Shown in pieces: positions 1,126-48,842 of a stretch of DNA of 64,000 bases; within the stretch, counting starts at the first letter, position 1, and every line of letters starts with the position of its first letter. A program made the position numbers and the translations under genes. This DNA comes from Parcubacteria group bacterium (GTDB taxonomy: Bacteria > Patescibacteriota > Minisyncoccia > Moranbacterales > UBA2206), in contig JBAZYF010000004.1 in assembly GCA_041659505.1 (NCBI GenBank), positions 78,922 to 142,921 on the forward strand, given 5' to 3'. The notes below the pieces were generated by a model. The model was not told the origin of the DNA, made no database searches, and saw only the letters and a program-made list of their open reading frames with translations.

Positions 1126-1241
1126 ACAACTTCTCCTTTTTGAGTGAATGAGTTGAAAAAAATATAGCCACAGACTGTGGCGGAAATAAGCATTTTTACC
1201 GGACAATTCAAATCAAAAAATTGTCAAAGTACGATTTATAA

Positions 1242-1270: not shown

Positions 1271-1302
1271 AACAAAAAAGGCTAACTTTCGCCAGCCTTT
1301 TT
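1266..1302 (-). terminator. Rho-independent terminator downstream of the KH-domain gene
   Basis: Hairpin aaaggct/agccttt followed by a U-tract on the minus strand (rc ttttttgttgttg), 24 bp after the stop at 1326. Confidence 0.5.
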
Positions 1303-1325
1303 AATTTTGCTAAAGTTGAGCTAAA

Positions 1326-1667: not shown

Positions 1668-1858
1668 TTTCGTATTTCTAGATTAATGCTTATTAAATTG
1701 TTCGTAAGAGGGCTTCGGAAGATCGACCCCCACCATCGCTGTTGTCCGCTAGGCTAAAAATAGCACCGGCAGAACTCTCTTACTTTCGCCTATATTATAT
1801 TATTTATCCGTTATTCTGTCAAAAAAATATCCACCAATCCGCAAGAGTCAAAATAAGG

Positions 1859-2590
1859 TTAGATTTCTGGCTTATCAATGCCTATGCTTTTCAAAAGTTC
1901 TAGTTGCTCCGGTCCTTCAATTTCTCGATACTCACGCGTTTTTAGACTACCCAATTTAATGTTCATGATCCGCGTACGTTTGAGTTCGGTCACCTTGCGT
2001 TCCAATCTTTCACACATCCTGCGAATCTGTCTTTTCTTACCTTCAGTAAGTACGATAGAAAAAGCCAACTCATTCACTTTTTTTACTTCGCAACTTCTGG
2101 TTTTATATCCATCATCCAGCACCACGCCCTCTGACATATTTTTGATAAACCCAGGGCTGATGGTGCGATCTACTTTGACCAAATATTCTTTTTCATGATA
2201 GTGATCGGGATTAAGTAATCGGTCAGTCACACGTCCATCGTTCGTAAGCAAAATAAGACCGTGCGAATCTTTGTCGAGCCGACCCACGGGAAAAACTTTC
2301 TGTGAATAATTGAAAATATCTTCGATGCTCCGCTCCCCTTTTTGCGGACTGTGTGTCACAATACCTTGCGGTTTGTTGTACGCCAAATAGACCAGCTTTC
2401 TGTTCCGGCGGATGTCTTTGTCGATCGTCACCTCATCTGTCTCATTGACTTTCGCCCCAAGTGCAGCCACCAGGCCGTTGATTTTCACCCGGCCGGATTT
2501 TATAATTTCATCCGCCGCCCGACGGGTGCAAAAATTGTTATAGGCCAGGTATTTATTGATCCGGATCGGATAAGTGATTTCTTTTTTCAT
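1859..2590 (-). CDS. Pseudouridine synthase, RsuA/RluB family (S4 domain plus catalytic domain)
   Basis: N-terminal S4 motif (INKYLA...RRAADEIIKSGRVKING), catalytic FPVGRLDKDSHGLILLTNDG, KEYLVKV. Confidence 0.85.
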   Translation of the reverse strand: MKKEITYPIRINKYLAYNNFCTRRAADEIIKSGRVKINGLVAALGAKVNETDEVTIDKDIRRNRKLVYLAYNKPQGIVTHSPQKGERSIEDIFNYSQKVFPVGRLDKDSHGLILLTNDGRVTDRLLNPDHYHEKEYLVKVDRTISPGFIKNMSEGVVLDDGYKTRSCEVKKVNELAFSIVLTEGKKRQIRRMCERLERKVTELKRTRIMNIKLGSLKTREYREIEGPEQLELLKSIGIDKPEI

Positions 2591-2600
2591 TTAATTGATG

Positions 2601-2758
2601 TGTCATTCCCGCGAAGGCGGGAATCCAGGTTCCACTAGTTATAAATTACAACAATCGAACTATAAATCCATTAACTTCTTGTTACCAACCAGTAAATTCT
2701 GTTTTTCTTTTTCTTAAAACCTGAGGTGCCTGGATCCCCGCCTTCGCGGGGATGACAC
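2601..2758. mobile_element. MITE-like element, family A (about 160 bp; 30-bp TIR GTCATTCCCGCGAAGGCGGGAATCCAGGTTCC), copy 1
   Basis: Terminal inverted repeats at 2602-2635 and 2722-2758. Same termini at 15369, 20937 and 61899. AT-rich divergent interior. Confidence 0.8.
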
Positions 2759-2794
2759 GGGGTATGGAAATACGCCAAAAGATTAAACTTAAAT

Positions 2795-3631
2795 CTAGCA
2801 CAGATTATTAATTTTGTCCACCACCTCATCGATCAAAAATTGCGCGGTCGAAGCGCCAGCGGCGATGCCGACTATTTGTACATCTTTGAACCATTCTAAT
2901 TGTAACTCCAAAGCGGTTTCAATGTGATGCGTCGGAGTTTTTTGTGCTTCGCTTAACTGGACCAATTTTCCAGTATTACTCGAATTTTTTCCCCCAATCA
3001 CAATCATTAGATCCACAACCTTCGCCAATTCGGAAACTTCCGCTTGTTTAGTTGAGCTATCCAGACAAATGGTATTTTCCACAACCAGGTTCTTGACTTT
3101 TTCTGCCAATCCCTTGATAACATTATCTAACAACTCTTTTTTTTGCGTCGTCTGGCTGAGCACACCGACCTTGCCACCGAATTCCAGATTTTTCACGTCA
3201 TCAGCATCGTGAATTATTTTCGCTGAATCACTCGCCCACGCATTGATGCCAATCACTTCGGCATGCTGGGGATCGCCACAGATGACAACGTCGTAATTTT
3301 CCTCGTGAAATTTTTTCGCCACCAACTGTGCCCGCCTGACGAACGGACAAGTCGCGTCCAAAATCTCACCGCCTTGTGCCACAATTTTTTCCACAATTCT
3401 TGGATCAATTCCGTGACTGCGAATGAGAAACAGACTACCCGCCGGAATTTCCGCGAGCTCCCGCACAGTCACTAATCCTTTTTGCTCCAGCTTTTCAATC
3501 ACTTGTTGATTATGGATGAGCGACCCCATGCAATAGACTTTTCGTCCGCTCTCCAGCGCTTTTTCCGCCAGCTCCACCGCCCGGCGAACCCCAAAACAAA
3601 ACCCAGCATGCGTGGCAATTTTTATTTCCAT
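2795..3631 (-). CDS. ispH: 4-hydroxy-3-methylbut-2-enyl diphosphate reductase IspH/LytB
   Basis: MEIKIATHAGFCFGVRRAV... Conserved Cys ligands. Length 278 aa. Confidence 0.9.
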   Translation of the reverse strand: MEIKIATHAGFCFGVRRAVELAEKALESGRKVYCMGSLIHNQQVIEKLEQKGLVTVRELAEIPAGSLFLIRSHGIDPRIVEKIVAQGGEILDATCPFVRRAQLVAKKFHEENYDVVICGDPQHAEVIGINAWASDSAKIIHDADDVKNLEFGGKVGVLSQTTQKKELLDNVIKGLAEKVKNLVVENTICLDSSTKQAEVSELAKVVDLMIVIGGKNSSNTGKLVQLSEAQKTPTHHIETALELQLEWFKDVQIVGIAAGASTAQFLIDEVVDKINNLC

Positions 3632-3717
3632 AATTGTATCAATACGATTTACATTCTATTCCTTAAACGATTTTAGCTTATCATACGTCGGGATTTTGGA
3701 CAATTGGGTGATTACTG

Positions 3718-3756
3718 AAGGAAAATCAAAAACAGTCCCAGATAAAAAGGACTGTT
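3718..3756 (-). terminator. Rho-independent terminator after the DUF378 gene. Hairpin aacagtcc/ggactgtt with a U-tract. Also reads as a hairpin on the plus strand.
   Basis: 8-bp stem at 3731-3738 and 3749-3756. T-run rc of 3718-3730. Lies 17 bp past the stop codon at 3773. Confidence 0.5.
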
Positions 3757-31950: not shown

Positions 31951-32358
31951 CTACTTGCCCTGCACTTTTTGCCACAGCGCTTGCAGATAAAGAACCGGCG
32001 CAGAAGAGATTTTTTTATGCATTTCCTCGGAAAAACAACTTTCTTTTCCGGAAGAATTTCGCGCGCTGACAGAGAAATAGTAAGTCTTTCCGGGCTCAAG
32101 ATTACTCAATTTGAATTGACCAACCTTTCCGACTGTTTGATTTTTAGCATATCCTCCCGACGGACAATCGCCGTTTCTTGGGTTGGTACCATAATAGATT
32201 TTGTAGCCGGTCGTATTTCCATCACTGCTCAAATTCCAGGAAAGATTAGCTGTTCCTTTTGGCGGATCAACCTTCAACCAGCTAGATCCAGCCAGAAGCC
32301 AGATGACCACGCTCAAAATCAGCAACGAGAGAAAAGTTATTTTTGTTTTTTGTTGCAT
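31951..32358 (-). CDS. Small secreted fibronectin-type-III domain protein
   Basis: Signal peptide. GYKIYYGTNP...GKTYYFSVSARNSSGKES FN3 pattern. Paralogous to the FN3 part of 35769-36302. Confidence 0.6.
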   Translation of the reverse strand: MQQKTKITFLSLLILSVVIWLLAGSSWLKVDPPKGTANLSWNLSSDGNTTGYKIYYGTNPRNGDCPSGGYAKNQTVGKVGQFKLSNLEPGKTYYFSVSARNSSGKESCFSEEMHKKISSAPVLYLQALWQKVQGK

Positions 32359-33704: not shown

Positions 33705-35744
33705 TTAATTTTTTATCCGGTAATAGATTTTTTTACTTTTCCACCCGGTCTTTAGATTAACCGCGTACCAATTATAGGTTCCTTTCGGCTTGGCCGCATA
33801 ATAATCCACTCGAAAATAGCCAGTCTTGGAAGTCTTAACCAACATCGGTTTATAATACCCTCCGCCATATTTGGAGAAGTACAGTGCTACCATTGAATTT
33901 TTGGTAAATTTATTTCCCCGCTCAATTAGCAATCCTCCTCGAGGTACGTTTTTTCGCGAATTGGTAATTTTTCTTGTTTGCTCTTTCTTTTTTGAACTTG
34001 AAGATTTTGATTTGTGATTATCTGAAATTGCTGTTGCATTTGAAATAGAGAAAGAAATTGCATAGTCACTGACAGTCGGATTCAACGCTTCATCCGCACA
34101 ACGCACATAGTAGGTATAACTACCACCGTCAATCAATCCGGTAGCGGAAAAAGAATGCGTGGTTGTTCCGGTAGTGGTAGTAAATTCATCAGTCATAGAA
34201 GCATAAGCCGTCTCGGCGGTAGTAGAGTACTTGCAAGTAGCATTTTCATTTGTTGTCACCCCGACAGTCGCCGAAGTCGTTCCCTTAGTCAACGTTCCGC
34301 TTGGTGTTCCATTGGAAAGCACTGGCGGGGTTGTGTCAGGTATATTTAAAGTGATTGTATCTGTAGTATCGCTTGTCACAGTTAGCCCGCCATCTCGAAA
34401 GCGCATATAGACAGTTTTTGATCCATTTCCACTGGTCAGTGTATGCGACGCGGTTGTGGCACAAGTAGCCCAATTAGTCGGACTAGCGGTGTTCCCAAAA
34501 GCCATCTGCACCGTTGCCCAATCATCAGTTGGACAAGTAATATTTAGCGTAACGGCAGTCGTAACTGCTTCCGTAGCACCATTATCAATTGTGAAAGATC
34601 CCCCCGTCGGTGCCGTTGTGTCGAGTTCAATCGTGTCGGTCACATCACTCGCTGTCACAGTCTGTCCACCATCTCGAAAACTCATATAAACTGTCTTTGT
34701 GCCATCTCCAGCAGACAGCGTATGCGCTGTCGTCGCTGCACAAGTCGTCCAGTTGGTCGGATTAGCTGAATTACCGAAAGCCATCTCAACCGGAGTCCAA
34801 CTGTCCGTCGGACAAGTCACATTCAAAGTCACCGCAGTTGAAGCCGTACGTGCCGCATCGCTATTGATCGTAAAGGATCCACCGGTCGGTGCCGCCATAT
34901 CAATTGTGACTGAATCATTCCGGCTTGTGGAAACATTATCCGCCGCATCTTTCGCCCAAGCATACAGCGTTTTGGTGCCTGTTGTTCCGAAAACAAATTC
35001 TGTCGGAACAGCACCCCAATCAGCGTCATCAGACGCAGGAGCGGAAGATGATTCAGTAAGCAGATACGCGGTCACGCCAATCGCATCAGTCGCTGTGAAT
35101 GTGGTAATCGGAACAGTGAGAGAGGCTGAATTGGCTGGAATTACAAAGGCTGTCACCGTCGGTGCTACACCATCCGTTCCAGTAATCGTAACAGCGGCAG
35201 GAGTCCGTGTTGACACAACTTGCGTTCCATTTCCGTCATTAACCGCTGCATTTGACGCAGTCGTAAAAACAACAGGAGAACTAGTTGCCGCGGAAACAGC
35301 ATGAAAAGAAATTGTCGCCACGTCCGTCGGAATAATCTCAGGGGTCGACGTATAAACAACTACTGTAGCTGTTCCAGCGACATTGTCAAAGGTCGGATAG
35401 CCTTCGAGGGAAGAGAAAGCAGTCGTATTGACAGTTATTCCATTAGTATTAATCTGCAACACTGTTTCATCAAACGTAATGTGCAGCTCGACTGCATTTA
35501 TCCCGGGGTTTCCCTCACTTCCATCATTTGAATTAGGATCAACACTCGCAACAAGATTGAAATCAGCGCCCGCCGCAACTGTCGTTGTTGCCGGAGTAAA
35601 AAGTAGTTCCGCATCATCATCTGTCGCGCGAGCAGTTTTAATTTGGGAAAATTGCCAACAGGTTGTGAGAGTAAAAATAACAGCGATAGTAAGCGTTTTG
35701 AACGTTTTCATGGAAAGTACTTTTTTATTTTTCATATTTTTCAT
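33705..35744 (-). CDS. Large secreted surface protein: N-terminal cohesin-like domain, two approximately 95-aa tandem Ig-like repeats, basic C-terminal domain
   Basis: Signal peptide. ELLFTPATTTVAAGADFNLVASV...INAVELHITFDETVLQIN resembles cohesin strands. Tandem repeat APTGGSFTI(N/D)...RFRDGG..VT x2 at nt 34380-34950. Confidence 0.6.
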   Translation of the reverse strand: MKNMKNKKVLSMKTFKTLTIAVIFTLTTCWQFSQIKTARATDDDAELLFTPATTTVAAGADFNLVASVDPNSNDGSEGNPGINAVELHITFDETVLQINTNGITVNTTAFSSLEGYPTFDNVAGTATVVVYTSTPEIIPTDVATISFHAVSAATSSPVVFTTASNAAVNDGNGTQVVSTRTPAAVTITGTDGVAPTVTAFVIPANSASLTVPITTFTATDAIGVTAYLLTESSSAPASDDADWGAVPTEFVFGTTGTKTLYAWAKDAADNVSTSRNDSVTIDMAAPTGGSFTINSDAARTASTAVTLNVTCPTDSWTPVEMAFGNSANPTNWTTCAATTAHTLSAGDGTKTVYMSFRDGGQTVTASDVTDTIELDTTAPTGGSFTIDNGATEAVTTAVTLNITCPTDDWATVQMAFGNTASPTNWATCATTASHTLTSGNGSKTVYMRFRDGGLTVTSDTTDTITLNIPDTTPPVLSNGTPSGTLTKGTTSATVGVTTNENATCKYSTTAETAYASMTDEFTTTTGTTTHSFSATGLIDGGSYTYYVRCADEALNPTVSDYAISFSISNATAISDNHKSKSSSSKKKEQTRKITNSRKNVPRGGLLIERGNKFTKNSMVALYFSKYGGGYYKPMLVKTSKTGYFRVDYYAAKPKGTYNWYAVNLKTGWKSKKIYYRIKN

Positions 35745-35768: not shown

Positions 35769-36302
35769 TTATTCGAAAGAACTTCCAAATTCCCCCGCCA
35801 GAATACTCAAATCACTCACATCAACCGTTCCACTTCGATTAATATCCGCCGCGTGTTCAATAGTTTGGCCGAATAAACCGGCTATAATACCCAAATCAGA
35901 AACATCCACCGCACGATCGATATTTATATCTCCTCGATAAGTAATCAATTTCGAAACCTCAGTCGCGTTATAATTGCTCTCATTAGCCGAAGTGTCATAG
36001 GCCGTCAGACGGAAATAATAGGTCTGTCCGGGAGTGAGTGCATCAAACCAATGCGAAACTCCATTGTCCGTTACATCATAGGAGTTAGCATAATCATCAT
36101 CGGCCGGATCAGTCGCCGACGAGTGGGAAGCAGTGTCGTAATAAATTTTGTAGCCATCCAAATCACCCTCGGAGTTGGCGTTCCAAGTTACGTGCGCCGA
36201 TCCAGCCAAGGCCTGCCCGGCTCCGAAAGCGAATAGAGCAAGAAGCATGCACAAAAAAACCAACTGTTTTTTTGCGGTTTTCATTTCTATTTTACTTTTC
36301 AT
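35769..36302 (-). CDS. Secreted FN3-domain protein with a C-terminal type-I dockerin
   Basis: Signal peptide. FN3 (GYKIYYDT...GQTYYFRLTAYDTSANES). Duplicated Ca-binding segments GDINIDRAVDVSDLGIIAGLFG / ADINRSGTVDVSDLSILAGEFG. Confidence 0.7.
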   Translation of the reverse strand: MKSKIEMKTAKKQLVFLCMLLALFAFGAGQALAGSAHVTWNANSEGDLDGYKIYYDTASHSSATDPADDDYANSYDVTDNGVSHWFDALTPGQTYYFRLTAYDTSANESNYNATEVSKLITYRGDINIDRAVDVSDLGIIAGLFGQTIEHAADINRSGTVDVSDLSILAGEFGSSFE

Positions 36303-37519: not shown

Positions 37520-39637
37520 TCAACTCACACTAAATCCGCTCGGCGAAGTTGGCGCAGTCACATCTTCTATGCCGGAAATATATTCATAGGCACCGATCGA
37601 TGGTGGATCTGGACGAGAAAATCCAACCTTATCCGTCGGCACGCCAGCCAAAGGAATTCCAGCTCCGATGAGCGGGCTGTCCGACTGAAGCCGAAAATCA
37701 CAGGTATTATTAACGCAGTCCGTATAGGCAGCGATAAATTTAGGGTTTCCGCCGTTAATATAATCATGATCACCGGTTTCATCGATCAGCTCTGCTGTTC
37801 TCGCGCCATAGGTCGGCGGATTCCACATACCATAATAGTTGTTGGACGCGGGGTTGTTTGAACTATCTTTAATGAGACAGCTTTTTATTCCTTCAGCGTC
37901 ATAGATCCGTGGATCGCCATCGGGAACAGCCGAAGGATTGCAGGTGAAAGAACTGGTTACACCGGTTTTTTTATTCCAGCCCCACTGGTCACCAAACATT
38001 ACATCGACCGTTCCACTGACTACACAAGTCGTGTTCCAAGCGGTGTTGGTCCAAGTGATTCCACTGTCCGTGCAAGTGTTGCCAACGTTGGGGCAATTCG
38101 CACTCCAGTTTGGCGGCGTTGCACCGGTGTTGCCACTACCGGCTCCAACATAAACCGAACCGTTGGCGGTGAGCATCGCTTGCTCTCCACCCTGCCCGAT
38201 CCAATGTGAAATATCCGTATTGACCGACCAAGTTTGCGTGATAACATTTTTGGCGCACTCCACCCAATCTCCCATCGGCCCGCCACCAATGATGCCGAAA
38301 TTCGGATTAGTTGTTCCGCCAATAATAATATTATTGCGATATTCACCGCCGGTCGCCCAACCTTCCAAAGGATAGACTTGATCAGACTGAGCAATATTGA
38401 AAAAAGTATTGTTGTAAATTTTATCATTAGGAGCAGCAAAGCAAGTATTTCTGTGCGTAATATTAGCAAAAATATTATTATGCACCAGCCAATCATGATT
38501 ATTGTCTCCCTCCATCATGCAGGTCTGAGCTTCCAAATCATGGAAATAATTATTCTGAATTGTCACGTCGAAGGAATCACCCCCGACTATTTGGAAAAGA
38601 TCAGTGTGCGCACCACAATTGTCCGCCAAATCCGGTCGGTTCTCATTGGAATCCAAAAGATTTGAGACTTCATTATCTTCGATAATCGTTCCCTCAAGCA
38701 ATCCATCAAACACTCTTTCCGTGTTAATCAAGTTACGCACGATATTTCGACGAAAAATATTATCCACTCCGCCAGAAACAATCGGAATCCAATAAGATGA
38801 TCCAATCGCATAGCAATCGCCAGTTTCCCAAGTGATGCCAAGAGATGTGGTCAAAGAATGAGCGTCATTAGCAATGACTGTCCCCGCATCAGTTCCGGCC
38901 CAACTGTCTCCCGGATCCGTAAAATCCCAAATTCGCCGACCCTGCCACTGATTGGACGTCCAAGCAGAACTATAACTATCCGACAGTGTCGTACCGTTCG
39001 CACCCGTGTGATGTCCACCAACCAGAACCGGATTCGTGTCTCCTTCAATCAGATTATTTTCAGCAATATTGTCATGCCCGTCAAAAGTTATGGCTGCGCT
39101 GCCTACAGATTGGCTAGGGTTATAGAAATGACAACTGGTTACTTTGGAGTGACTCGGTGAGCTATCCCAACCGAAAGTTACGCCCGCGTACCCGGAAGAA
39201 TAACCATAAGAACCGGTGATACCCAGACCATTGACGATATTGTAGCTATGATTTATCTGGATGCCTGGACGGATAATCGCCGAATATTGCTGGGCGCCGG
39301 GAGTGATTTGAATAGTGATGTAAGTCGGACTGGTCGCGCAACTTGCGCCCGAGCATCCATCTGCTTTTGTCGTCAGCAATCCCTCGTCCGTGTGGTCGCC
39401 TCGAATATTAACTACATCCCCAGGAGAAACGGCCACATCAATCCCTTTCTGCACCGTACGAAAAGCACAGTTTCCAGATGATCCGGAAGCATCAACAGAA
39501 CCATTACAATTATCATTTCCATCCGTGCGGACATAGTAGTTCGTGGCACTAGCTCTAGCACCAAAACTAAAAATTCCACCAAAGATAATTAGACCGAGAA
39601 AAATTAATTTAGCGTTTAGCCTTTTAGCCTTCATCAT
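37520..39637 (-). CDS. Secreted right-handed parallel beta-helix repeat protein (pectate-lyase-fold), paralog 1 of 6
   Basis: Signal peptide. Many xNNxIxxN beta-helix rungs. Ends ...IGAYEY...PSGFSVS. Confidence 0.7.
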   Translation of the reverse strand: MMKAKRLNAKLIFLGLIIFGGIFSFGARASATNYYVRTDGNDNCNGSVDASGSSGNCAFRTVQKGIDVAVSPGDVVNIRGDHTDEGLLTTKADGCSGASCATSPTYITIQITPGAQQYSAIIRPGIQINHSYNIVNGLGITGSYGYSSGYAGVTFGWDSSPSHSKVTSCHFYNPSQSVGSAAITFDGHDNIAENNLIEGDTNPVLVGGHHTGANGTTLSDSYSSAWTSNQWQGRRIWDFTDPGDSWAGTDAGTVIANDAHSLTTSLGITWETGDCYAIGSSYWIPIVSGGVDNIFRRNIVRNLINTERVFDGLLEGTIIEDNEVSNLLDSNENRPDLADNCGAHTDLFQIVGGDSFDVTIQNNYFHDLEAQTCMMEGDNNHDWLVHNNIFANITHRNTCFAAPNDKIYNNTFFNIAQSDQVYPLEGWATGGEYRNNIIIGGTTNPNFGIIGGGPMGDWVECAKNVITQTWSVNTDISHWIGQGGEQAMLTANGSVYVGAGSGNTGATPPNWSANCPNVGNTCTDSGITWTNTAWNTTCVVSGTVDVMFGDQWGWNKKTGVTSSFTCNPSAVPDGDPRIYDAEGIKSCLIKDSSNNPASNNYYGMWNPPTYGARTAELIDETGDHDYINGGNPKFIAAYTDCVNNTCDFRLQSDSPLIGAGIPLAGVPTDKVGFSRPDPPSIGAYEYISGIEDVTAPTSPSGFSVS

Positions 39638-39650
39638 AAAATTAAATTTA

Positions 39651-39677
39651 TTCTGTTACTTGCCTTGTTACGTAACA
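39651..39677. promoter_or_regulatory. Operator-like motif TGTTACTTGCCTTGTTACGTAACA, 14 bp upstream of the paralog-1 start codon. Near-identical to the motif at the AbrB-like gene (48801-48827).
   Basis: 24/25 nt identical to 48801-48825. Contains the palindrome TTGTTACGTAACA. Confidence 0.5.
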
Positions 39678-39694
39678 TATTATTTACATCACTT

Positions 39695-41392
39695 TTATTC
39701 AACACTTAATCCTTGAGGTGTTATTGGGGACGTCGTGTCTGTTCCAAAATATTCATACGCTCCAATATCATAGGCGCCGGCAATTCTGGCAATCGGATTG
39801 GCTGTGCCGGCGGTGTTAATATTGCCATAATAGGGACTGCCGATTGTAGCGCCGTTATTGATTGCGTCGCCGGAGGTGATTTTGAAATAGTCGGCGTTGG
39901 GGAGCAAATTAGTTCCATAGGTGCCGGAAAATCCGGTGGGCAAAGTGCCACCTGCAAACGTTGGAACTGTGATCTTGGCCGTCGGTTCCCATGCTGCAGT
40001 TATTATATTATCACCCTCTCCGTCATAAACGATATGCTCTCCCCAGTTGCCGGTTGAGACATAGACGTGATCTGTCCCGCTTGAACGATAATATAGATTA
40101 TTATTGTGGATGAGCGTTCCACTGCCAATGTCAGCGTACATAGGGATATAATCATAGGCAGATATCGAAGTTGTTACTACGCTTAATATATTATTTTTCA
40201 AATTAAATGTAGGCGTTCCACTTATAGTGCTACTATCCCTTGAAAAACCAATGCACCCAACAAAAGTATCTATTCCGTTCGCCTCTGCATATAGCGTGTT
40301 GTTGTAAATTCCAAATTCGGAGTTTCCATAGTCTGAACTGCTAAAATTGATTCCATAACCCACATTATTATAAATCAGATTATTATAAAAATAACTTGTC
40401 TGATCTTGAGCATAAAAGTTTTGAAAGATAATGCCATCTTTTGTGTTATTGCGAATTAAGTTATATCGCACCACTAAATCAGTAGGTATCCCATTAATCG
40501 GCCCATCTAGTGAGTCCCTAACGCTTATTCCGTAAATCTGCCCCGGAGCCACCGCGCCGGTGTCATAAAGATCACACCACTCTATCGTCACGTTTTTTGA
40601 ATTGTTATTTACCGCTATCGCGATACCATTTCCGGATTTATTGCTGTCGTTATTATCCGTGCCGTTATCATACACCTTGCAATGGCTTATTATTACCCCG
40701 TCAACACCGTTTCCGCAGTTTGCAGTATTGCCCCAGCTCGGGTATACGGCGATTCCCTCATGGTAGGTATTATATATTTCGCAATTGGTTATGTTGATGT
40801 TAGTATTAACAATGCTGGAATTCGCTTTTGCGCCGACCAATATGCCATACATCCAATATTTCTGGGTGTTTCCTGTCGGCTGCCCTTGATCGTGGACAAC
40901 GCAGTTATCCACCGTAATATTTGATATTGGTGAAGAATTTGAGTATCCAATATAGATTCCACCAGAATTTATTTGACTACCGTCAACTTCAAAACCTGCA
41001 AAGATTACGTCACTCTCTATTATTCTGACCGTAGAAGTGTTTGATATGGCAGTAGCTTTCAATTTAGCTCTTGTACCTGTCCCGTAAGCTGACCCGTCAT
41101 AGGCAACACCGGACGTCGCGATCAACAAAGGATTATCGCCCGTCCAGGTATCCTGCGACCGGAAATAAACCGTATCCCCGCTAGCAACTATATTTGAATA
41201 TCCGGCAGTAGCCATAACGCGATCAGGCGTCGCCCAAGCATTGGCATCATCCAATCCAGACAAACTGTCATTGCCTCCGTTTTTGACATAATATGTGGCG
41301 GCACTGGCTTTGGCGCTCGCGCCGAAAATTGCAAAAAATAGGATTGCGAGGAAAAATATTTTTAGTTTTAATTTTACTTTTACTTTTAGCAT
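39695..41392 (-). CDS. Secreted parallel beta-helix repeat protein, paralog 2
   Basis: Conserved leader MLKVKVKLKLKIFFLAILFFAIFGASAKASAATYYVKNGGNDSLSGLDDANAWAT. Beta-helix rungs. C-terminal module ...DIGAYEYFGTDTTSPITPQGLSVE. Confidence 0.75.
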   Translation of the reverse strand: MLKVKVKLKLKIFFLAILFFAIFGASAKASAATYYVKNGGNDSLSGLDDANAWATPDRVMATAGYSNIVASGDTVYFRSQDTWTGDNPLLIATSGVAYDGSAYGTGTRAKLKATAISNTSTVRIIESDVIFAGFEVDGSQINSGGIYIGYSNSSPISNITVDNCVVHDQGQPTGNTQKYWMYGILVGAKANSSIVNTNINITNCEIYNTYHEGIAVYPSWGNTANCGNGVDGVIISHCKVYDNGTDNNDSNKSGNGIAIAVNNNSKNVTIEWCDLYDTGAVAPGQIYGISVRDSLDGPINGIPTDLVVRYNLIRNNTKDGIIFQNFYAQDQTSYFYNNLIYNNVGYGINFSSSDYGNSEFGIYNNTLYAEANGIDTFVGCIGFSRDSSTISGTPTFNLKNNILSVVTTSISAYDYIPMYADIGSGTLIHNNNLYYRSSGTDHVYVSTGNWGEHIVYDGEGDNIITAAWEPTAKITVPTFAGGTLPTGFSGTYGTNLLPNADYFKITSGDAINNGATIGSPYYGNINTAGTANPIARIAGAYDIGAYEYFGTDTTSPITPQGLSVE

Positions 41393-41406
41393 TTTTATTC
41401 TTTCTC

Positions 41407-43050
41407 TTAGTTTACACTAAGTCCGCTGGGTGCGGAAGGAGAAATTATGTCTGTGCCTTGATATTCATACGCTCCAATATCATAGGCGCCGGCAATTCTG
41501 GCAATCGGATTGGCTGTGCCGGCGGTGTTGATGTTGCCGTCATAGGGACTGCCGAGTGTGGCACCGTTGTTCAAAGCGTCGCCAGAGGTGATTTTGAAAT
41601 AGTCGGCGTTGGGCGCCATGTCAGTTCCATATGTTCCAGAGAAGCCAGTAGGTAGCTCCCCTCCTGTGAAAAGTGGGTTTGTTACTTGTACTCCGGATGT
41701 TTCCCATGAGGCTAAATCAGAGGCATCGTAAGCAGACGCGTCAACCTGAACCCACTTAATTTCTGGATGAGACAAGGCATTGTCTTGATAATACAAATTG
41801 TTAGAATGATTAAGAACATCCGACTGTATTAAGGCCGTGTTTTTATTATTCTGATGCTGCCAAAAAATATTATTCCTCACATTTGCTGTCAGTCCAGTAA
41901 CGACGCCTCCAGTTGTTATACACTGGCCTTGAGTATAATCTGTGTTAGTTGTGCTGATTTGAGCTACAGTATTATTGTAGAAATTGATTATGCTATTTTT
42001 GCTATCCCTCACCAATCCATAATCAGCCGTAGTAAAGTGAACACCAGTTGAAACGGGGGAGCCAGATGATCCGCTATTGTAAATAATATTGCCATAAATA
42101 TCCATTTCTATAGCAAAACCTCTCGGAGTAAATGATATTCCTGAGTACCGGCTTGAGTATATGAGATTATGCCGTAAAGTGACACCAGTCATGCATTTAG
42201 TACTCTCATATTCAGAACATTCAACAGTAACCCCGTAATAATTATCATGAATATTATTATATTCTGCTACTAAATTAGTGATGTCATCTTTAAGTCGTAA
42301 GCCACCTGAACTTTTATCAGCCGACATGCTTGAGTTGTACACTTCATTATTTCTAATAATTACGTCCCTGACATAAGCAGTTCTTGCCCAAGTAGGATAA
42401 ACTGATATTCCGCCCCATCCAGAATTATATACGACATTATTGGTCATGGTTATATCGCTTACGGTTAAACCGTCTGGCTGTACCGTCCCAATATATATTC
42501 CATTAGACCCTTGCGCGGCTGAACCGCAATCATGGACTACATTATCATCGATGGCAATGTGACCAAAATCAGCAGTAGCGAACGTATGACATGCATCTAT
42601 CCCAAAAACGTTTGTTGAACCTCCATCTATCTCAAACCCACCAAAGAGAACATTACTAACTCCAATTTGAACTACCCCATATGATTTTGTGGGATCTGTA
42701 CCATTATTAATAGCTTTTAAAAATGCACGCTGTTGTGTTCCTGTTCCGTACCCCTTGCCGCGATATGTAACACCAGTTTTTGTTATCAGCGTAGGTGCCA
42801 ACTCTGATATCCACGACCCCTGCGTGTTGAAATAAACAACATCTCCGCTGGTAAGTACAGTCGAGCCTGTCCACTCCACCATACCTGGACAGTGCGCCCA
42901 AGCATTAGCATCATCAATACCAGACAAGGAATCATTTCCACCGTTTTTGACATAATAGGTCGCGGCGCTGGCTTTTGAACTCATGCCAAAAATTGCAAAA
43001 AATAGAATTGCCAGGAAAAATATTTTTAGTTTTATTATTTTAAAATTCAT
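41407..43050 (-). CDS. Secreted parallel beta-helix repeat protein, paralog 3
   Basis: Same leader and C-terminal module (…YDIGAYEYQGTDIISPSAPSGLSVN). Divergent core. Confidence 0.75.
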   Translation of the reverse strand: MNFKIIKLKIFFLAILFFAIFGMSSKASAATYYVKNGGNDSLSGIDDANAWAHCPGMVEWTGSTVLTSGDVVYFNTQGSWISELAPTLITKTGVTYRGKGYGTGTQQRAFLKAINNGTDPTKSYGVVQIGVSNVLFGGFEIDGGSTNVFGIDACHTFATADFGHIAIDDNVVHDCGSAAQGSNGIYIGTVQPDGLTVSDITMTNNVVYNSGWGGISVYPTWARTAYVRDVIIRNNEVYNSSMSADKSSGGLRLKDDITNLVAEYNNIHDNYYGVTVECSEYESTKCMTGVTLRHNLIYSSRYSGISFTPRGFAIEMDIYGNIIYNSGSSGSPVSTGVHFTTADYGLVRDSKNSIINFYNNTVAQISTTNTDYTQGQCITTGGVVTGLTANVRNNIFWQHQNNKNTALIQSDVLNHSNNLYYQDNALSHPEIKWVQVDASAYDASDLASWETSGVQVTNPLFTGGELPTGFSGTYGTDMAPNADYFKITSGDALNNGATLGSPYDGNINTAGTANPIARIAGAYDIGAYEYQGTDIISPSAPSGLSVN

Positions 43051-43070
43051 TTCAAATTTACAATTTTAAA

Positions 43071-45068
43071 TTATTCCACTGCTAATCCGCTCGGCATATT
43101 CGGTGGAGTCGCGTCAGATCCTTGGTATTCATAGGCGCCGATATCATAAGCCGATCCTTGTGGTCTTGCAACTCCAAGATAATCCACATTATAGGGACTC
43201 CCAAGTGTTGCTCCATTGTCATAAGCAGTTGAAGAAGTGCTTATGCTTAAATCGCCCTCGGAAGGATCGGCATAATTTGGATCCGCGCTTTCAAATCCAT
43301 TGACATCAAATCCATTTCCTTGCCATGTTGCCCATGATACAGGATTCATTCCCCCACCAAAAACAGTTTGAATGGAATTTCCGGAATGATTATAATTAAT
43401 ATTATTATCTATTTCTACTGAACCAGCATTATAGGCGCCATAATAAATTGCTATTCCTAATTTTGAATAGAAAATATTATTTTTTATTGTAAAATTTCCT
43501 GGAGTATAAGCACATCCAGAATTGAGAGCAACGCCACCTCCGGCATTAGGAGCATAAATCGAATTATTTATAAAATAATTTTCTCCAGTAAGAGGATTAG
43601 CTTGTGTTGCACTTTGACCCGTATAAGCGAAAGCTGAATCGGCATGAGTTGACGTCTGTATGACTAAATTATTTGACCATACATTATTTTGGAATCCCCA
43701 ATCTAACCTTCCCGACGAATACATAGCAGTCATTGGTCCAATGATTTTATTTTTTGTAAACGTATTTCCTTGGATAGGCGCAGAATCAGCATATTGAAAA
43801 TAATAATAAGCTCTTAATGCATTAAGCGAAGATGACGCAATAAGGGCAGTCGCCTGATCACCCGTTAAACTGCAACTAATAAGATTATCACTAATCGTAC
43901 TATCCTGTACTGCTTGCCATGATATACCTTCACAGTCAGCGGTATCAAAATAATGGGTGAATTCAGGCACTGTATTTATTGATTGACCACTTGGAATTAT
44001 AATTTCCCCATGATGGGTTATCTCATTTTCTGTTACTAAATAATTTGAATGTTTTCCAACGCCTTCAGTGCCATTACTTGCCCAAAATGATATTCCAGAA
44101 TTACAATAACTTATATGATTTCCTTGTATTGTCATATCTGACAAAACAGCATTCGTGGAAGCATCAACAACCCCCCAAATCGCCCAATAGGTATTAGATA
44201 TTGTATTATTAGAAACGACATTGCCCTGTAAATTTGACGACCCAGATGCTCCATGCCCCATATGTATCGCAGTAGGACATCGAGTAAATGTTAAGCCATC
44301 AACTGTAATATAACTTCTATCACGAATATCAAATCCGGCAGGGGCATAATTAGAAGTTGCACCCTCACCGCCCATGGTCCATCCAAGAGATTCTAATATG
44401 CGGTCAGAAGGTGCTCCGCTTGATGGACTATAATACAATACAGACCCAGAATAATAAAACCATCCATTAGTCAATGATGCACTACTGCCAGGCAACAATG
44501 GCACTCCGTCTTCCCATAAAACTCTCGGTCTTATATAGGTTTGATTATATGTATAGATATAATTTCCAGTATAAATGCTGACATTTGTTGTATTTGTCCA
44601 TGTCCCTGTCAATAAAAACGTTCGATCAATCACAGGAGAATCACCTGGTGCCGCGGTATATGTGATAGGACTTCCTTCTGCTCCATCAGAAGGAGGAATA
44701 AATAAAGGTGATTCATTCCCAGTAGGCCTATAAGCATACACTGTTCCACCATGCGTCGTTGTTCTTTCTTCCATACCATCATCGCAAATATAAATAGTAT
44801 CGCCTGGAGCAAATGTCTGAGCATTGTGCGTAGCAACGGACATAGCTGTTGAAGCGGAAGAGCAGGAGGTGGCAGCGGACTTATCAGAAGCCGTTCCATC
44901 AAATCGCATATAATATTCTGCCGCGCTGGCATCTAGCGCTTTCATGCAAAAAACTGTCGGAAATAAAACCGCTAGAAAAAAGATTTTTAGTTTTAAATTG
45001 TCATTTTGCCTGCCCGAAATGCCGCCCATATTAAAAGTTTTTGACTGGTTATTTGTTAATATTTTCAT
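43071..45068 (-). CDS. Secreted parallel beta-helix repeat protein, paralog 4. The start may be Met at 45029.
   Basis: Leader NLKLKIFFLAVLF. Beta-helix rungs. C-terminus ...YDIGAYEYQGSDATPPNMPSGLAVE. Confidence 0.7.
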   Translation of the reverse strand: MKILTNNQSKTFNMGGISGRQNDNLKLKIFFLAVLFPTVFCMKALDASAAEYYMRFDGTASDKSAATSCSSASTAMSVATHNAQTFAPGDTIYICDDGMEERTTTHGGTVYAYRPTGNESPLFIPPSDGAEGSPITYTAAPGDSPVIDRTFLLTGTWTNTTNVSIYTGNYIYTYNQTYIRPRVLWEDGVPLLPGSSASLTNGWFYYSGSVLYYSPSSGAPSDRILESLGWTMGGEGATSNYAPAGFDIRDRSYITVDGLTFTRCPTAIHMGHGASGSSNLQGNVVSNNTISNTYWAIWGVVDASTNAVLSDMTIQGNHISYCNSGISFWASNGTEGVGKHSNYLVTENEITHHGEIIIPSGQSINTVPEFTHYFDTADCEGISWQAVQDSTISDNLISCSLTGDQATALIASSSLNALRAYYYFQYADSAPIQGNTFTKNKIIGPMTAMYSSGRLDWGFQNNVWSNNLVIQTSTHADSAFAYTGQSATQANPLTGENYFINNSIYAPNAGGGVALNSGCAYTPGNFTIKNNIFYSKLGIAIYYGAYNAGSVEIDNNINYNHSGNSIQTVFGGGMNPVSWATWQGNGFDVNGFESADPNYADPSEGDLSISTSSTAYDNGATLGSPYNVDYLGVARPQGSAYDIGAYEYQGSDATPPNMPSGLAVE

Positions 45069-45125
45069 AAGCTCGAATTAATTTTATGGAATTTCGCGGC
45101 AGGCGGGCATTTTGATATTTGCATT

Positions 45126-47045
45126 TTAATTTACCATAAGTCCTCCCGGAGCTATTGGCGACGTTGTATCAGTTCCAAAATATTCATACGCACCAATATC
45201 ATACGCTCCGGCAATTCTAGCAATCGGATTGGCTGTTCCGGCGGTATTGATGTTGCCGTCATAGGGACTGCCAAGCGTGGCGCCGGCGTTGAGAGAACTG
45301 CCAGAAGTGATTCTGAAATAGTCAGTATTAGGAAGCAGATTAGTGCCATAAGTTCCGCTGAAACTAACCGGAAGAGTGCCCCCGGTGAATGTTGGCGGAT
45401 CAATTAGTGCAGAGGCGTCCCAATCTCTTACTTGCGCTAAATTATAATTTCTAGCATTAGTGCCATATGTTCCATAGCGGATGACAGTTGCCGTTGGCCC
45501 TCCAATCGACCGGTAATAAATATTATTAGCTCTTGTTAGATGGCCTTGGGTGCAGGTATCATGGTCGTTATTATAACATTCTGTTATAGCGGGATAATCT
45601 CCGCTGTAGACAATATTATTTTTGAAATTGAATGTAGGGTTGCCCTTGATGTCATTATTTTGGATCCCAATCGCCCCGCCATCTCCGATGTAGATACTAC
45701 CTTTAATCGCAGCCGTACTGTTTACGTTGTAAAAGGTATTGTTATAGATATCCACGACCGTGTCTCCATAGTGGCAACTAGGAATCTTAAGATCATTTTT
45801 ATTATCAATAAACAAATTGCCATACAGCCTTGCATCAAAAGTTCTGCTTCCGAGGGCATTGGCGAATACAAAACCCTGATTATTATTCCGCACAATATTA
45901 TATCTAAACACAATATCATTGGGAACACCCGGGTCTGCGGGGATAAATTCTCCGTCGGTCACAACAGTTGCTCCGCTCGTATTTCCCTTAAGCACATCGC
46001 CATCGGAAGGGGCAACGATATAATCATTCGGCATAGAAATGAAGAGCGGACTTGCTTGCATGTGAGTTTGGGCTGAAAAAACTACTTGTCCGGTATCTGC
46101 TCCGCCTGACCAAGCACCTTGGCCATGATCCCATGATACAATTTCACCGTCCTGCAAAGTTCCAACCGGGTTGTTGTATGGCACATTAGCCGCTCTCGCA
46201 TAAGTCTCAATCTGTGCTCCATTGCCGGCATTATTATAGAGCGTACAATATTCAACAGTGACGTTATCTGCATCATCTTTGATATCCACTCCATTGCCAT
46301 AACCAGCAAGACTATTCCCATCCGAATCAATCCCTATGCCTGTGTCATGGACGGTGCAATTTCGAACTAAAACATTTTCGATACTATGCCCGCTTCGCGT
46401 CCAAGTCGGATAGATAACAATTCCCGCCCGCATAGTGTTATATACTTCCGTATTTGTTATGGAAACATTTTCAACAGAATAATTATATCCCCCAACAGTG
46501 CCAATGTAGATTCCCCTGATCCACCAATCTTGATAGGTCGTTCCCACATCATGCACGACACAATCATCGATCGCGAGATCGGTGAAACTTTCATTGCAAT
46601 AACCGCAGGCATCGATACCGCTAGTGTCATGCGAAGCCACATCGATTTCGAAGCCTTTGATATTGACGTGGCTCTTGGAAACAATAATTACTCCGTCACC
46701 ATCATACCCAGCATCATCCTTATCTCCTGTTGCCCGTAAAATCGCCCTCGCGCCAGAGCCGTACGTCGAACCATCATAAGTCGCACCCTCCTTTGCTGTT
46801 ATGGCAGGCGGATTGACTGCCCAAGTGCCTTGATTGTTGAAATAGACCGTGTCGCCACTCGTCACTGTCGCCTCAACTTTGGCAGTGGTCGCCCAAGCAT
46901 TTGCGTCGTTGAGTCCTGAGAGACTATCGTTGCCACCATTTTTGACGTAATAGGTGGCGGCGCTGGCTTTGGCACTCACGCCAAAAATTGCAAAAAATAG
47001 GATTGCAAGAAAAAATATTTTTAATTTTAGTCTTTGCTTTAGCAT
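45126..47045 (-). CDS. Secreted parallel beta-helix repeat protein, paralog 5
   Basis: Leader MLKQRLKLKIFFLAILFFAIFGVSAKASAATYYVKNGGNDSLSGLNDANAWAT. C-terminus ...YDIGAYEYFGTDTTSPIAPGGLMVN. Confidence 0.75.
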   Translation of the reverse strand: MLKQRLKLKIFFLAILFFAIFGVSAKASAATYYVKNGGNDSLSGLNDANAWATTAKVEATVTSGDTVYFNNQGTWAVNPPAITAKEGATYDGSTYGSGARAILRATGDKDDAGYDGDGVIIVSKSHVNIKGFEIDVASHDTSGIDACGYCNESFTDLAIDDCVVHDVGTTYQDWWIRGIYIGTVGGYNYSVENVSITNTEVYNTMRAGIVIYPTWTRSGHSIENVLVRNCTVHDTGIGIDSDGNSLAGYGNGVDIKDDADNVTVEYCTLYNNAGNGAQIETYARAANVPYNNPVGTLQDGEIVSWDHGQGAWSGGADTGQVVFSAQTHMQASPLFISMPNDYIVAPSDGDVLKGNTSGATVVTDGEFIPADPGVPNDIVFRYNIVRNNNQGFVFANALGSRTFDARLYGNLFIDNKNDLKIPSCHYGDTVVDIYNNTFYNVNSTAAIKGSIYIGDGGAIGIQNNDIKGNPTFNFKNNIVYSGDYPAITECYNNDHDTCTQGHLTRANNIYYRSIGGPTATVIRYGTYGTNARNYNLAQVRDWDASALIDPPTFTGGTLPVSFSGTYGTNLLPNTDYFRITSGSSLNAGATLGSPYDGNINTAGTANPIARIAGAYDIGAYEYFGTDTTSPIAPGGLMVN

Positions 47046-47061
47046 TTTGCTTTTTCCAATT

Positions 47062-48600
47062 TTAATTTACTGCGAGACCAGTTGGGACTTCAGGATGAGA
47101 AACATCAATCAAGTCTTGGAGTGGATGCGGATAAATTAACGGGGTATAAGTCAAAGTATGATTTCCTGCGCCTGATGGCTGACTCGCCGTAATGGAATAG
47201 TCAACGTCCCCATTACCAAATCCCGCTGTAACATGTGGCGTGCTTTTGAAATAATTGACTCCACTATAAATGACAACACCGAAGCTATTGTCACATGCTA
47301 GCCCCAAGGCTGAAGAATCATAGCACTTGTCCTGAAGGCCATTATTCCAGACATAGAGGGGGAAAGTTGTTTGTTTATCGCCAGAAAGTATCTGCGCCAT
47401 AGTTTTTCCCGCCGCCCTTCCGGTTTGCGCAAGGCAGGGCCAGCCAGGAGCAGAAGCATCGCCCGCATTTCCGTCCCAAGCATGTGTGCCATCGCAGTAA
47501 AGTAGTGGCGCTCCGGTCTGATCCTGCTCAGGAAGCCTCCCCTCTCCTATCCTAATTGCATTTTCCGGCCAACCGACAAAAGTATTGTCATAAATTAGAC
47601 CCGTGCCACCGCCATGGATGCGCATCGGAGTCAACCAATCACCGCCATAATCCCAACTAAATTTATTATTATAAACCTCCCACCATTGTGTGTTGACGCT
47701 TCCTCCTGTCGTCCAGTGAGAATATAATCCCACATCTGTGAGCGTATTATGGCGAAAAACTATCCTTCCTCCCCGATAACCGCTGTCGATAGCCGCATAG
47801 CCGGAAGCACCGTAGGGTCCGGTTGAACTAGCCACGAAAGTGTTGTCTTCAATGTAAATTGCATTTAAACTTCCCGGCTGAAAAGGCTGTGCTAGGTTAT
47901 ATGCTCCGAAAATATTATTTATCGAACCGTCTTCCGAAGAAAATTCTCCGTCATATATAATAGTTGACTCGCAATTCATGACAAAATAGTTATGATCAAT
48001 GAGGCCAAAGGCGAGTCCGCGAATCGTAATTGCGTGCGGACCGCAGGTATTAGGGTAATAGAAAGTCATATGATCAATCCTCCAGCCATAACTAGTGCCT
48101 GACGGTTGAACTGGATAATTATAGCCGTCATTAGAAAGAGAAAACCCGCCACCATTATTTAAGCTAGTTAAAAAAATATTTGTCACCCTCCAGGCCATTT
48201 TTGTACTATTTGTTTCACTGGAATAAATTCCGCTTGTGTTCATCAATCCGTCGTCAGTCGTTAAACAAGTATCAACGGATGGATTACAAGAACATGTGCT
48301 ACCTGCGCAAGAACCATGTCCCTGCCCTTGAAGTGTTATATTTTTATCCACCCAACCTACACCGTTATCCCAAGCAGGATTGACGTTGCAAGATCCGACA
48401 CTAATATTGACCACGTCTCCGTCGATTGCCAAGCTTGTCGCACTGGTAAGTGCAGTTGTAATATCACCGGAACAAGTAACATTCCTAGTTGCCCCAAAAG
48501 TTTTCCCCGCCACTCCAAACACTCCACAAAAAAGAATTATGAGAAAAAAGATTTTTAGTTTCAAGTTTTGGCGCATTTTTTTCTGCCCAAGACAAATCAT
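47062..48600 (-). CDS. Secreted parallel beta-helix repeat protein, paralog 6. Most divergent. The start may be Met at 48576.
   Basis: Leader MRQNLKLKIFFLIILF. Beta-helix rungs. Ends ...HPEVPTGLAVN. Confidence 0.65.
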   Translation of the reverse strand: MICLGQKKMRQNLKLKIFFLIILFCGVFGVAGKTFGATRNVTCSGDITTALTSATSLAIDGDVVNISVGSCNVNPAWDNGVGWVDKNITLQGQGHGSCAGSTCSCNPSVDTCLTTDDGLMNTSGIYSSETNSTKMAWRVTNIFLTSLNNGGGFSLSNDGYNYPVQPSGTSYGWRIDHMTFYYPNTCGPHAITIRGLAFGLIDHNYFVMNCESTIIYDGEFSSEDGSINNIFGAYNLAQPFQPGSLNAIYIEDNTFVASSTGPYGASGYAAIDSGYRGGRIVFRHNTLTDVGLYSHWTTGGSVNTQWWEVYNNKFSWDYGGDWLTPMRIHGGGTGLIYDNTFVGWPENAIRIGEGRLPEQDQTGAPLLYCDGTHAWDGNAGDASAPGWPCLAQTGRAAGKTMAQILSGDKQTTFPLYVWNNGLQDKCYDSSALGLACDNSFGVVIYSGVNYFKSTPHVTAGFGNGDVDYSITASQPSGAGNHTLTYTPLIYPHPLQDLIDVSHPEVPTGLAVN

Positions 48601-48636: not shown

Positions 48637-48798
48637 CTATTTTTTCCAATCTTTCACCAAAAAGCCGCCTCGCACTTTTTTCACCACCACTTTCTGTTTT
48701 TCTTTCCAGCCTAATTCACGCACGATTTCGATCGGCAAAGTCAGCCCGATGCTTCTTTTGCCAAGCCGGGTCAATTTTCTGATTTCATTATTTTTCAT
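48637..48798 (-). CDS. AbrB/MazE/SpoVT-type swapped-hairpin DNA-binding protein, 53 aa
   Basis: SIGLTLPIEIVRELGWKEKQKVVV matches the looped-hinge-helix/AbrB N-domain. Start set at the second Met: the first Met (48831) would translate the operator palindrome. Confidence 0.55.
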   Translation of the reverse strand: MKNNEIRKLTRLGKRSIGLTLPIEIVRELGWKEKQKVVVKKVRGGFLVKDWKK

Positions 48799-48800
48799 AT

Positions 48801-48827
48801 TGTTACTTACCTTGTTACGTAACAAGG
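48801..48827. promoter_or_regulatory. Operator-like motif TGTTACTTACCTTGTTACGTAACAAGG, including the perfect 18-bp palindrome CCTTGTTACGTAACAAGG, at the 5' end of the AbrB-like gene
   Basis: Perfect palindrome at 48810-48827. Same 24-nt motif at 39651-39677. Confidence 0.55.
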
Positions 48828-48842
48828 TCATTACCTGAAAAA

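Follow-up and report, generated by a model that had tools for sequence, protein, structure and literature searches.

The 64,000-nucleotide stretch of DNA analysed here (the window) is part of a contig of 152 kb (locus tags WC848_*), assembled from a metagenome and assigned to a "Parcubacteria group bacterium". It carries a tandem array of six genes, G1 to G6, for secreted proteins of the beta-helix kind. We read the array as a set of genes with old cores, whose ends are similar from family-wide constraint together with old gene conversion (concerted evolution), and which has no switching device; we put the probability of this reading at about 0.65. An earlier note on this DNA had interpreted the conserved ends and variable middles as cassette-type surface variation by gene conversion.

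Open reading frames (ORFs) were found at exactly the coordinates which the earlier note had claimed (37520-48600), as six consecutive genes on the minus strand:

37520-39637, minus strand: G1, 705 amino acids, secreted and only distantly related within the superfamily; its leader differs and its C-terminus is of the choice-of-anchor Q type
39695-41392, minus strand: G2, 565 amino acids, a secreted right-handed beta-helix protein and the modelled reference member
41407-43050, minus strand: G3, 547 amino acids, a secreted beta-helix protein, G2-type paralog
43071-45068, minus strand: G4, 665 amino acids, secreted and only distantly related within the superfamily; its C-terminus is of the choice-of-anchor Q type
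45126-47045, minus strand: G5, 639 amino acids, a G2-type paralog, secreted and of right-handed beta-helix fold, whose core carries an insertion of about 90 amino acids
47062-48600, minus strand: G6, 512 amino acids, secreted, of a separate beta-helix-like family

The array takes up 17.3% of the window, in agreement with the 17% estimated before. Its spacers are 14-57 nucleotides, and because they are short the six genes are probably co-transcribed. The start codons of G4 and G6 are ambiguous: the source annotation gives 652 and 504 amino acids (with G6 starting as MRQNLKLK…) versus 665 and 512 for the longest ORFs, and the shorter starts place the signal peptide closer to the N-terminus.

The six genes had been described as paralogs, which holds over the full length for three of them. 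In all-against-all BLASTP of the six proteins, G2, G3 and G5 were the sole full-length paralogs (32-42% amino acid identity), G4 (about 24%) and G1 (about 23%) were distant from the G2 family, and the leader was the sole match of G6 to the other five. Against a profile of 93 G2-family sequences, G1 aligned at residues 1-173 only (probability 95%) and G4 at residues 497-664 only (probability 98.9%), and the G6 family gave a weak match over generic repeat turns (hhalign probability 48%). G6 shares with the other array proteins only the hydrophobic h-region of the leader and the last 10 or so residues, the terminal P..P.GL.V tail. There are three lineages in the array: G2/G3/G5; G1 and G4; and G6. 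Relative to G2 and G3, the G5 protein has a mid-helix insertion of about 90 residues (alignment columns about 291-390); P0009, P0044 and P0048 were noted alongside it. A different inserted module of about 80 residues (…VTVSNDA.YTYFTKSGG.DWT…KW.GF..P.LNN…) is present in several homologs, including P0044 of the same genome.

The similar ends of the three full-length paralogs were located as follows:

41224-41392, minus strand: G2 5' block (signal peptide and start of the N-cap), homogenised with G3 and G5
42888-43050, minus strand: G3 5' block (signal peptide and start of the N-cap)
46883-47045, minus strand: G5 5' block (signal peptide and start of the N-cap)
39695-39964, minus strand: G2 3' block (type-A C-module and tail), holding the 69-nucleotide tract 39749-39817
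41407-41676, minus strand: G3 3' block (type-A C-module and tail), holding the 69-nucleotide tract 41461-41529
45126-45395, minus strand: G5 3' block (type-A C-module and tail)

Nucleotide identity of the ends was 72-86%, lower than the 85-90% given in the earlier note. The leader had been assigned to four genes; it is fully shared, with the ATYYVKNGGNDSLSG... block, by three (G2, G3 and G5) and partly by two (G4 and G6), and the leader of G1 differs. Among G2, G3 and G5 the leader together with the start of the mature protein was 78-81% identical over 54 codons, with the best local stretches of leader and N-cap reaching 81-84.5% over 148-168 nucleotides, and a 54-nucleotide piece of the h-region (LKLKIFFLAILFFAIFG) was common to G2-G6 at 74-91%. 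The C-terminal module of about 80 amino acids is indeed common to G2, G3 and G5: the 3' block of 92 codons (276 nucleotides) showed 72-76% nucleotide and 77-82% amino acid identity, and the best local stretch of the C-module was that of G2/G3 (85.9% over 205 nucleotides). These repeats are far beyond chance (BLASTN E values from 1e-35 to 1e-64). One exact tract of 69 nucleotides is shared by G2 and G3 (39749-39817 equal to 41461-41529), and exact matches in all other pairs were at most 26 nucleotides (26, 23, 20 or fewer). The cores are far more diverged, as had been noticed, with 30-35% amino acid identity pairwise, 20-27% in the multiple alignment, and saturated synonymous sites.

Synonymous sites were compared between segments. 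Codon usage predicts that identical residues have identical codons in 0.35-0.43 of cases; the observed share was 0.67-0.77 for the signal peptide and 0.54-0.72 for the C-module, and in the cores it was equal to expectation (37-42% versus 40%). A binomial test gave p values of 1.5e-8 (C-module of G2-G3) and 1.2e-3 (signal peptide), as against 0.3-0.75 in the cores. Synonymous divergence (dS) by the method of Nei and Gojobori was about 0.6-1.4 in the ends, and the cores were saturated (proportion of synonymous differences, pS, 0.78-0.83). As a control, G2 was compared with homologs of other phyla, and codon identity was near expectation in all segments.

The ends and cores also had different closest relatives. 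For G2, G3 and G5 the best matches of signal peptide, C-module and tail were each other (75-86%), and the six best core matches of each of them were all from other genomes (36-57%). For example, P0002 has a core 56-57% identical to G2, with unrelated leader, N-cap (30%) and tail. Besides the array, the Parcubacteria genome encodes at least five further G2-type paralogs on a 656-kb contig (P0006, P0007, P0008, P0033 and P0044). C-modules were typed over eight members of the same genome with P0013 and L040 from relatives, and two types were found: type A in G2, G3 and G5, and type B in P0006, P0008, P0044, P0013 and L040. Type-B modules were 82-92% identical mutually, and the types ignore core relationships (18-36%). 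P0033, from the same genome, is chimeric, with the first half of its C-module of type B and the second half of type A.

A second locus of the same organism was found in another sample (L002, positions 1-3753 of ENA ERZ27249449 k141_509918), in which a G4-like gene is directly followed by the G3-like P0006, matching the order of G4 and G3 in the array. The corresponding feature of the window is:

42866-43142, minus strand: junction of G4 tail, stop codon, spacer and G3 leader, 88% identical to the junction of L002

The identity of 88% extended over 291 nucleotides, with the stop codon and first 11 spacer bases identical, and the flanking cores had only 28% and 41% amino acid identity. Several independent comparisons thus show the array-gene ends to be younger than their cores. 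Terminal homogenisation is recognised by incongruent ends and cores, a chimeric member and lower synonymous divergence in the ends, all of which were found. The earlier proposal of recombined ends with a mosaic history is thus retained, on incongruent end and core relationships, lower synonymous divergence of the ends, the chimera and the cross-locus junction, and the function in cassette variation is not.

Searching a database with G2 gave 134 homologs from many lineages, for example Geobacteraceae, Smithella and Gastranaerophilales-like records. Their mature N-terminus is alike (ATYYVKNGGNDSL.GLSD..AWATIAKV...SGDTVYFRSQDTW), and so is their C-module (GGTLPTGF.GTYG.NM.PN..YF...G.A...GATLGSPYNG.INGAGLA.PI.RPQG.AYDIGAYEY). 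For 99 homologs of other genomes, mean identity to G2 reached 57% over N-cap residues 32-85 and 58% over C-module residues 471-548, as against 33% in the core, and for the same 99 it was 15% in the signal peptide and 15% in the last 17 residues. Since N-cap and C-module are kept in unrelated phyla, protein constraint explains most of the pattern, and the layout of conserved ends and variable middle is for the most part a property of the whole family, reflecting structural or functional constraint. The same N-cap and C-module pattern occurs in organisms which apparently have a single copy, so gene conversion within the array is not needed to explain it. Among the loci fetched, arrays in other organisms were seen only as weak two-gene cases.

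All six N-termini have a positively charged n-region, a hydrophobic h-region of about 15 residues and an A-x-A-like site, and therefore all six products have a Sec-type signal peptide. The proteins are thus predicted to be secreted, and the lack of secretion signals named as grounds for refutation was not found. The beta-helix fold had been claimed for all six. It stands for G2 and G5, which match Pfam PF13229 (Beta_helix) with 29.3 and 26.9 bits (cutoff 25.9), and for G3 by homology to G2; for G1 and G4 it stands in part and for G6 weakly. The choice-of-anchor Q model (NCBIfam NF041518) matched G4 (40.1 bits) and G1 (29.5 bits) above the curated cutoff of 25 bits; with this model G2, G3 and G5 were not reported at E <= 0.1 and G6 had no match. 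The C-module of G2, G3 and G5 aligns to the same NF041518 segment (to that of G4 with 98.9% probability) and ends in DIGAYEY.

The AlphaFold model of G2 is a right-handed beta-helix (pLDDT 89.7, pTM 0.90). Its best PDB matches in Foldseek are all glycan-active, namely GH136 lacto-N-biosidases (E 5e-11, TM 0.57), AlgE4 mannuronan epimerase, PL9 lyases and phage tailspikes. The G2-family profile matches the PL9 rhamnogalacturonan lyase 5olq (E 5.5e-6) over the 58-residue N-cap only. The G6 model is also confident (pLDDT 89.3), with weak Foldseek matches to beta-helix lyases and hydrolases (E >= 0.015), and some G6 homologs have Beta_helix or Pectate_lyase_3 matches in Pfam. A specific CAZy family for the G2 family (PL9, GH136, PL6 or AlgE-type epimerase) was rejected because there were no catalytic-domain sequence matches; the epimerase matches had E >= 0.066 and structural identity was 13-17%. 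Structure prediction and a CAZy/PL-family search of the cores, which the earlier note had proposed, gave a beta-helix model for G2 and no specific family.

We consider that G1-G6 are Sec-exported right-handed beta-helix proteins of the carbohydrate-active enzyme or tailspike-like kind, with a presumed activity on glycans. The cores may differ in glycan specificity, as the CAZymes and tailspikes nearest to them in structure do. The products would have their targets outside the cell, in polysaccharides of a host or of the environment, with a putative surface or host-directed role. Bacteria of the Candidate Phyla Radiation (CPR) are small in genome size, and a life attached to hosts is assumed for them. 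In such a genome 11 kb are given to six different secreted beta-helix proteins, which is plausible as a toolkit to recognise or cut glycans of the host or the environment.

All six proteins, and other paralogs of the same genome, end with D.T.P..P.GL.V[ENSD] and then stop, 15-20 residues past the last conserved motif. The tail is present even in G6, which shares nothing else at its C-terminus. It was located at the 3' ends of G1-G6:

37520-37570, 39695-39745, 41407-41457, 43071-43121, 45126-45176 and 47062-47112: Pro-rich linker and P..P.GL.V[ENS] tail

This tail corresponds to positions 1-11 of the Fn3 model. Because the same position elsewhere continues to a complete Fn3 or a dockerin, the tail is, as judged from sequence, an Fn3 A-strand without the domain behind it. 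A like tail ends about one quarter of the listed homologs, in the G2 family and the G6 family and in many lineages (APSNLRVQ*, PPTGLRVE*, a Rhizobacter protein), and other homologs have at this position a complete Fn3 (…PPSVPSGLTAAATSSSQINLSWSAS…) or a dockerin instead. In both AlphaFold models (G2 and G6) the tail has low confidence, and for this reason we regard it as not packed. Such an orphan A-strand could point to an undescribed attachment signal.

From these results we propose the following history. The cores are old paralogs which diverged independently. The mature N-cap (ATYYVKNGGND...GDTVYF) and the C-module of about 80 amino acids ending in DIGAYEY (choice-of-anchor Q type) are held by constraint across the family in many phyla, and the signal peptide, the C-module variant and the short terminal tail are specific to this genome and would have been exchanged among paralogs. 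Gene conversion or recombination, with the gene junctions at its centre, would have brought about this exchange over evolutionary time. Because of the constraint on the caps, the ends may stay alike enough for occasional homologous exchange, and the cores would be too diverged to recombine. The outcome would be concerted evolution of leader, C-module variant and tail.

If the array served programmed antigenic variation, the ends would act as homology arms and cores would be swapped into an expressed copy on a short time scale. The architecture of conserved ends and variable middle has this form, the products are secreted, and footprints of past conversion are real (the identical 69-nucleotide tract and the chimeric paralog). 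Nevertheless, every gene of the six is a complete ORF that has a start codon and a signal peptide of its own, and therefore none of them is a silent cassette; truncated or promoterless cassettes were not present in the array. Near-identical homology blocks flanking a variable segment were absent: the ends have 72-86% nucleotide identity and dS of 0.6-1.4, and exact matches do not exceed 26 nucleotides save in one pair. No site-specific recombinase, transposase or reverse transcriptase was found among the annotated ORFs of the window, where the sole DNA-metabolism gene found was RecJ. A diversity-generating retroelement was not seen either, as there was no reverse transcriptase in the window ORFs and the repeats found were paralogous gene ends only. 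Slipped-strand repeats were absent (A/T runs stay below 8, G/C runs do not exceed 6, and no simple sequence repeat reaches 5 units), and there were no convincing inverted repeats flanking a promoter, as an invertible promoter would have. A contig from a different metagenome (L074) differs by 1 base in 3736 across G4-G3-G2 (99.97% identical), and three other contigs from two further samples are 100% identical to the window (99.97-100% for the set L074-L077). N-cap and C-module are moreover conserved in single-copy homologs of other phyla. Cassette-type surface variation as claimed in the earlier note is thus not supported, given complete genes, ends at 72-86%, family-wide conservation and no recombinase, reverse transcriptase, repeats or invertible promoter, and we regard it as very unlikely.

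Similar ends could also come from pure purifying selection, by which protein need (caps and secretion signal) keeps them alike with no recombination between paralogs. The N-cap and C-module are conserved in the whole family and the codon identity of the G2-G5 N-cap is at expectation, both as this explanation predicts. On the other side, the synonymous excess in signal peptide and C-module is seen within the genome and not between genomes, a stop codon with the first 11 spacer bases is identical at two loci, the best matches are incongruent by segment and P0033 is chimeric. A recent tandem duplication with strong diversifying selection on the cores, in which the ends show the true young age, would agree with the tandem genes and with the amino acid differences in the cores. 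It is opposed by the saturated synonymous sites of the cores (codon identity equal to expectation, pS 0.78-0.83), by each core being closer to relatives in other genomes than to array members, and by G1, G4 and G6 belonging to different subfamilies. On the synonymous-site, best-match, C-module-type and junction results together, both are therefore rejected, pure purifying selection as unlikely and recent duplication as hardly credible. In another explanation, which we hold to be very improbable, the genome-specific leader and tail are conserved as addressing signals for the export and anchoring machinery of the bacterium itself, and the array is a set of interchangeable cargo. The ending D.T.P..P.GL.V[ENS] is found in all six proteins, even in the unrelated G6, similar ends occur in about a quarter of homologs of both families with dockerin or full Fn3 elsewhere, and the low-confidence tail would not be packed. 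However, the tail also occurs in Proteobacteria, which seemingly lack the Parcubacteria Fn3-dockerin family, and the likeness at the DNA level runs on through the stop codon and spacer, so that recombination has a part in any case. Addressing signals are compatible with concerted evolution of the ends, and the two do not exclude each other.

Several points weigh against concerted evolution of the ends without switching. The absence of array variation between samples is weak evidence against ongoing switching, because only consensus assemblies, apparently all of a single strain, were compared. The evidence from type-A and type-B modules and from the chimera is at the protein level (the same-genome paralogs were available as proteins, except for one 3.7-kb contig). 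The excess of codon identity in the ends could partly reflect constraint on the nucleotide level, such as 5' translation initiation, instead of conversion. For the proposed activity, TM-scores of 0.4-0.6 and about 15% identity allowed neither a specific CAZy family nor catalytic residues to be assigned. With these points considered, we still prefer old cores with ends shaped by constraint and old gene conversion, and the array would be a clean example of how these two can mimic antigenic-variation cassettes.

The array is flanked by the glycolysis genes PGK, enolase and iPGM upstream and by a PfkB kinase downstream. Two further genes lie near its downstream end:

35769-36302, minus strand: protein of 177 amino acids with signal peptide, Fn3 (Pfam match) and dockerin, about 1.2 kb downstream of the array
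33705-35744, minus strand: cohesin-like protein of 679 amino acids, with a sub-threshold cohesin match (18.8 versus 24.1 bits, E 0.002, 125/139 positions)

The first mature residue of the 177-amino-acid protein is also where its Pfam Fn3 match begins (model position 14). In 60 of 60 Parcubacteria homologs with N-termini read, the sequence is A.A|GSA.L.WNAN, that is the cleavage site and then strand B. In a Moranbacteria genome (L080), a copy of the small Fn3-dockerin gene stands directly before a Pfam-positive cohesin protein, and the two genes of the window look like a conserved dockerin-cohesin pair of CPR bacteria. Around the Fn3-dockerin homologs of two other CPR genomes a cohesin partner was seen and no beta-helix genes were found. 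The tail of the array proteins might complete in trans the A-less Fn3 of the Fn3-dockerin protein, which itself would be bound to the cohesin-like protein. If true, an adaptor made of split Fn3 and dockerin-cohesin would display exchangeable glycan-active cargo on the CPR surface, and gene conversion at junctions would keep leader and tail uniform. We consider this highly improbable, as the tail occurs also outside Parcubacteria and the Fn3-dockerin genes of the two other genomes are without beta-helix neighbours. The 679-amino-acid protein also has a direct repeat (34374-34615 and 34653-34894, 242 nucleotides, 70% identity) encoding two copies of a domain of about 93 amino acids (…TAPTGGSFTI…VTLN.TCPTD.W…). 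A second small Fn3 protein of 135 amino acids (31951-32358, minus strand), with an N-terminal hydrophobic segment and no dockerin, is encoded between the cohesin-like cluster and an acetyl-CoA-synthetase-like gene.

Candidate regulatory elements were found at two places:

48637-48798, minus strand: 53-amino-acid AbrB/MazE-like ORF (SpoVT-AbrB fold) directly upstream of G6, a candidate regulator
48794-48833: perfect 20-bp palindrome ACCTTGTTACGTAACAAGGT with a GTAACA half-site, just upstream of the 53-amino-acid ORF
39647-39677: second copy of the motif, TGTTACGTAACAAGG.AAGTAACA, 31 nucleotides and 87% identical, in the G2-G1 spacer about 25 nucleotides upstream of the G1 start

The small ORF matches Pfam PF04014 (E 9.9e-6, 25.9 bits versus a cutoff of 24.7) and is also called as a gene in the annotation of the source contig. 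The 12-nucleotide core TGTTACGTAACA occurs twice in the 64-kb window, versus 0.06 times expected. Because the motif stands only ahead of the 53-amino-acid ORF and of G1, the two sites suggest two co-regulated units with a candidate shared operator or promoter. A scan for consensus promoters was uninformative, giving 59 promoter-like matches where 33 were expected, dispersed within genes, and terminator-like sites did not rise above background.

In the literature on Parcubacteria beta-helix paralogs, choice-of-anchor domains and CPR dockerin/cohesin proteins, nothing directly relevant was found. The classical cassette systems, pilE/pilS of Neisseria, vlsE/vls of Borrelia and msp2 of Anaplasma, have one expression site, truncated promoterless donors and near-identical homology blocks. 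The array resembles them in having several adjacent related copies with conserved segments around variable ones, but it has neither the asymmetry of expression site and donor nor the near-identical blocks. With tailspikes and depolymerases, GH136 LnbX, PL9 Pel9A and rhamnogalacturonan lyase, and AlgE4, it shares the right-handed parallel beta-helix with terminal caps; identity to these is however about 11-20% with TM-scores of 0.4-0.62, and the array genes are chromosomal with no phage context. Tailspikes combine conserved terminal modules with exchangeable specificity domains. G1 and G4 are like NF041518 proteins in scoring above the cutoff, and G2, G3 and G5 in a C-module ending with DIGAYEY. 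None of the known C-terminal anchors (LPXTG, PEP-CTERM, the type IX secretion system C-terminal domain) comes after the C-module, only the tail of 15-17 residues. The array is also like cellulosome sets, being several secreted proteins resembling glycan enzymes, with close G6 homologs which end in dockerin and with the Fn3-dockerin and cohesin-like genes about 1.2 kb downstream; unlike cellulosomes, 0/6 array proteins have a dockerin and the neighbouring cohesin match is sub-threshold.

The bab genes of Helicobacter pylori have homologous N-terminal and C-terminal regions with a variable middle, and chimeras arise from 5' and 3' intragenomic gene conversion (PMC4552749). The array is like the Bab/Hop family (babA/babB/babC) in layout and in the incongruent histories of ends and cores. 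The Bab C-terminal regions are >90% identical, whereas the array ends have 72-86%; Bab conversion is seen between isolates, together with phase variation by CT repeats, whereas the array has no such repeats and no change between samples; and Bab proteins are beta-barrel outer membrane proteins, whereas the array, in a monoderm CPR bacterium, encodes soluble or secreted beta-helices. We therefore regard the array as a secreted beta-helix multigene family with termini in concerted evolution, whose behaviour can be compared with that of the Bab family in H. pylori.

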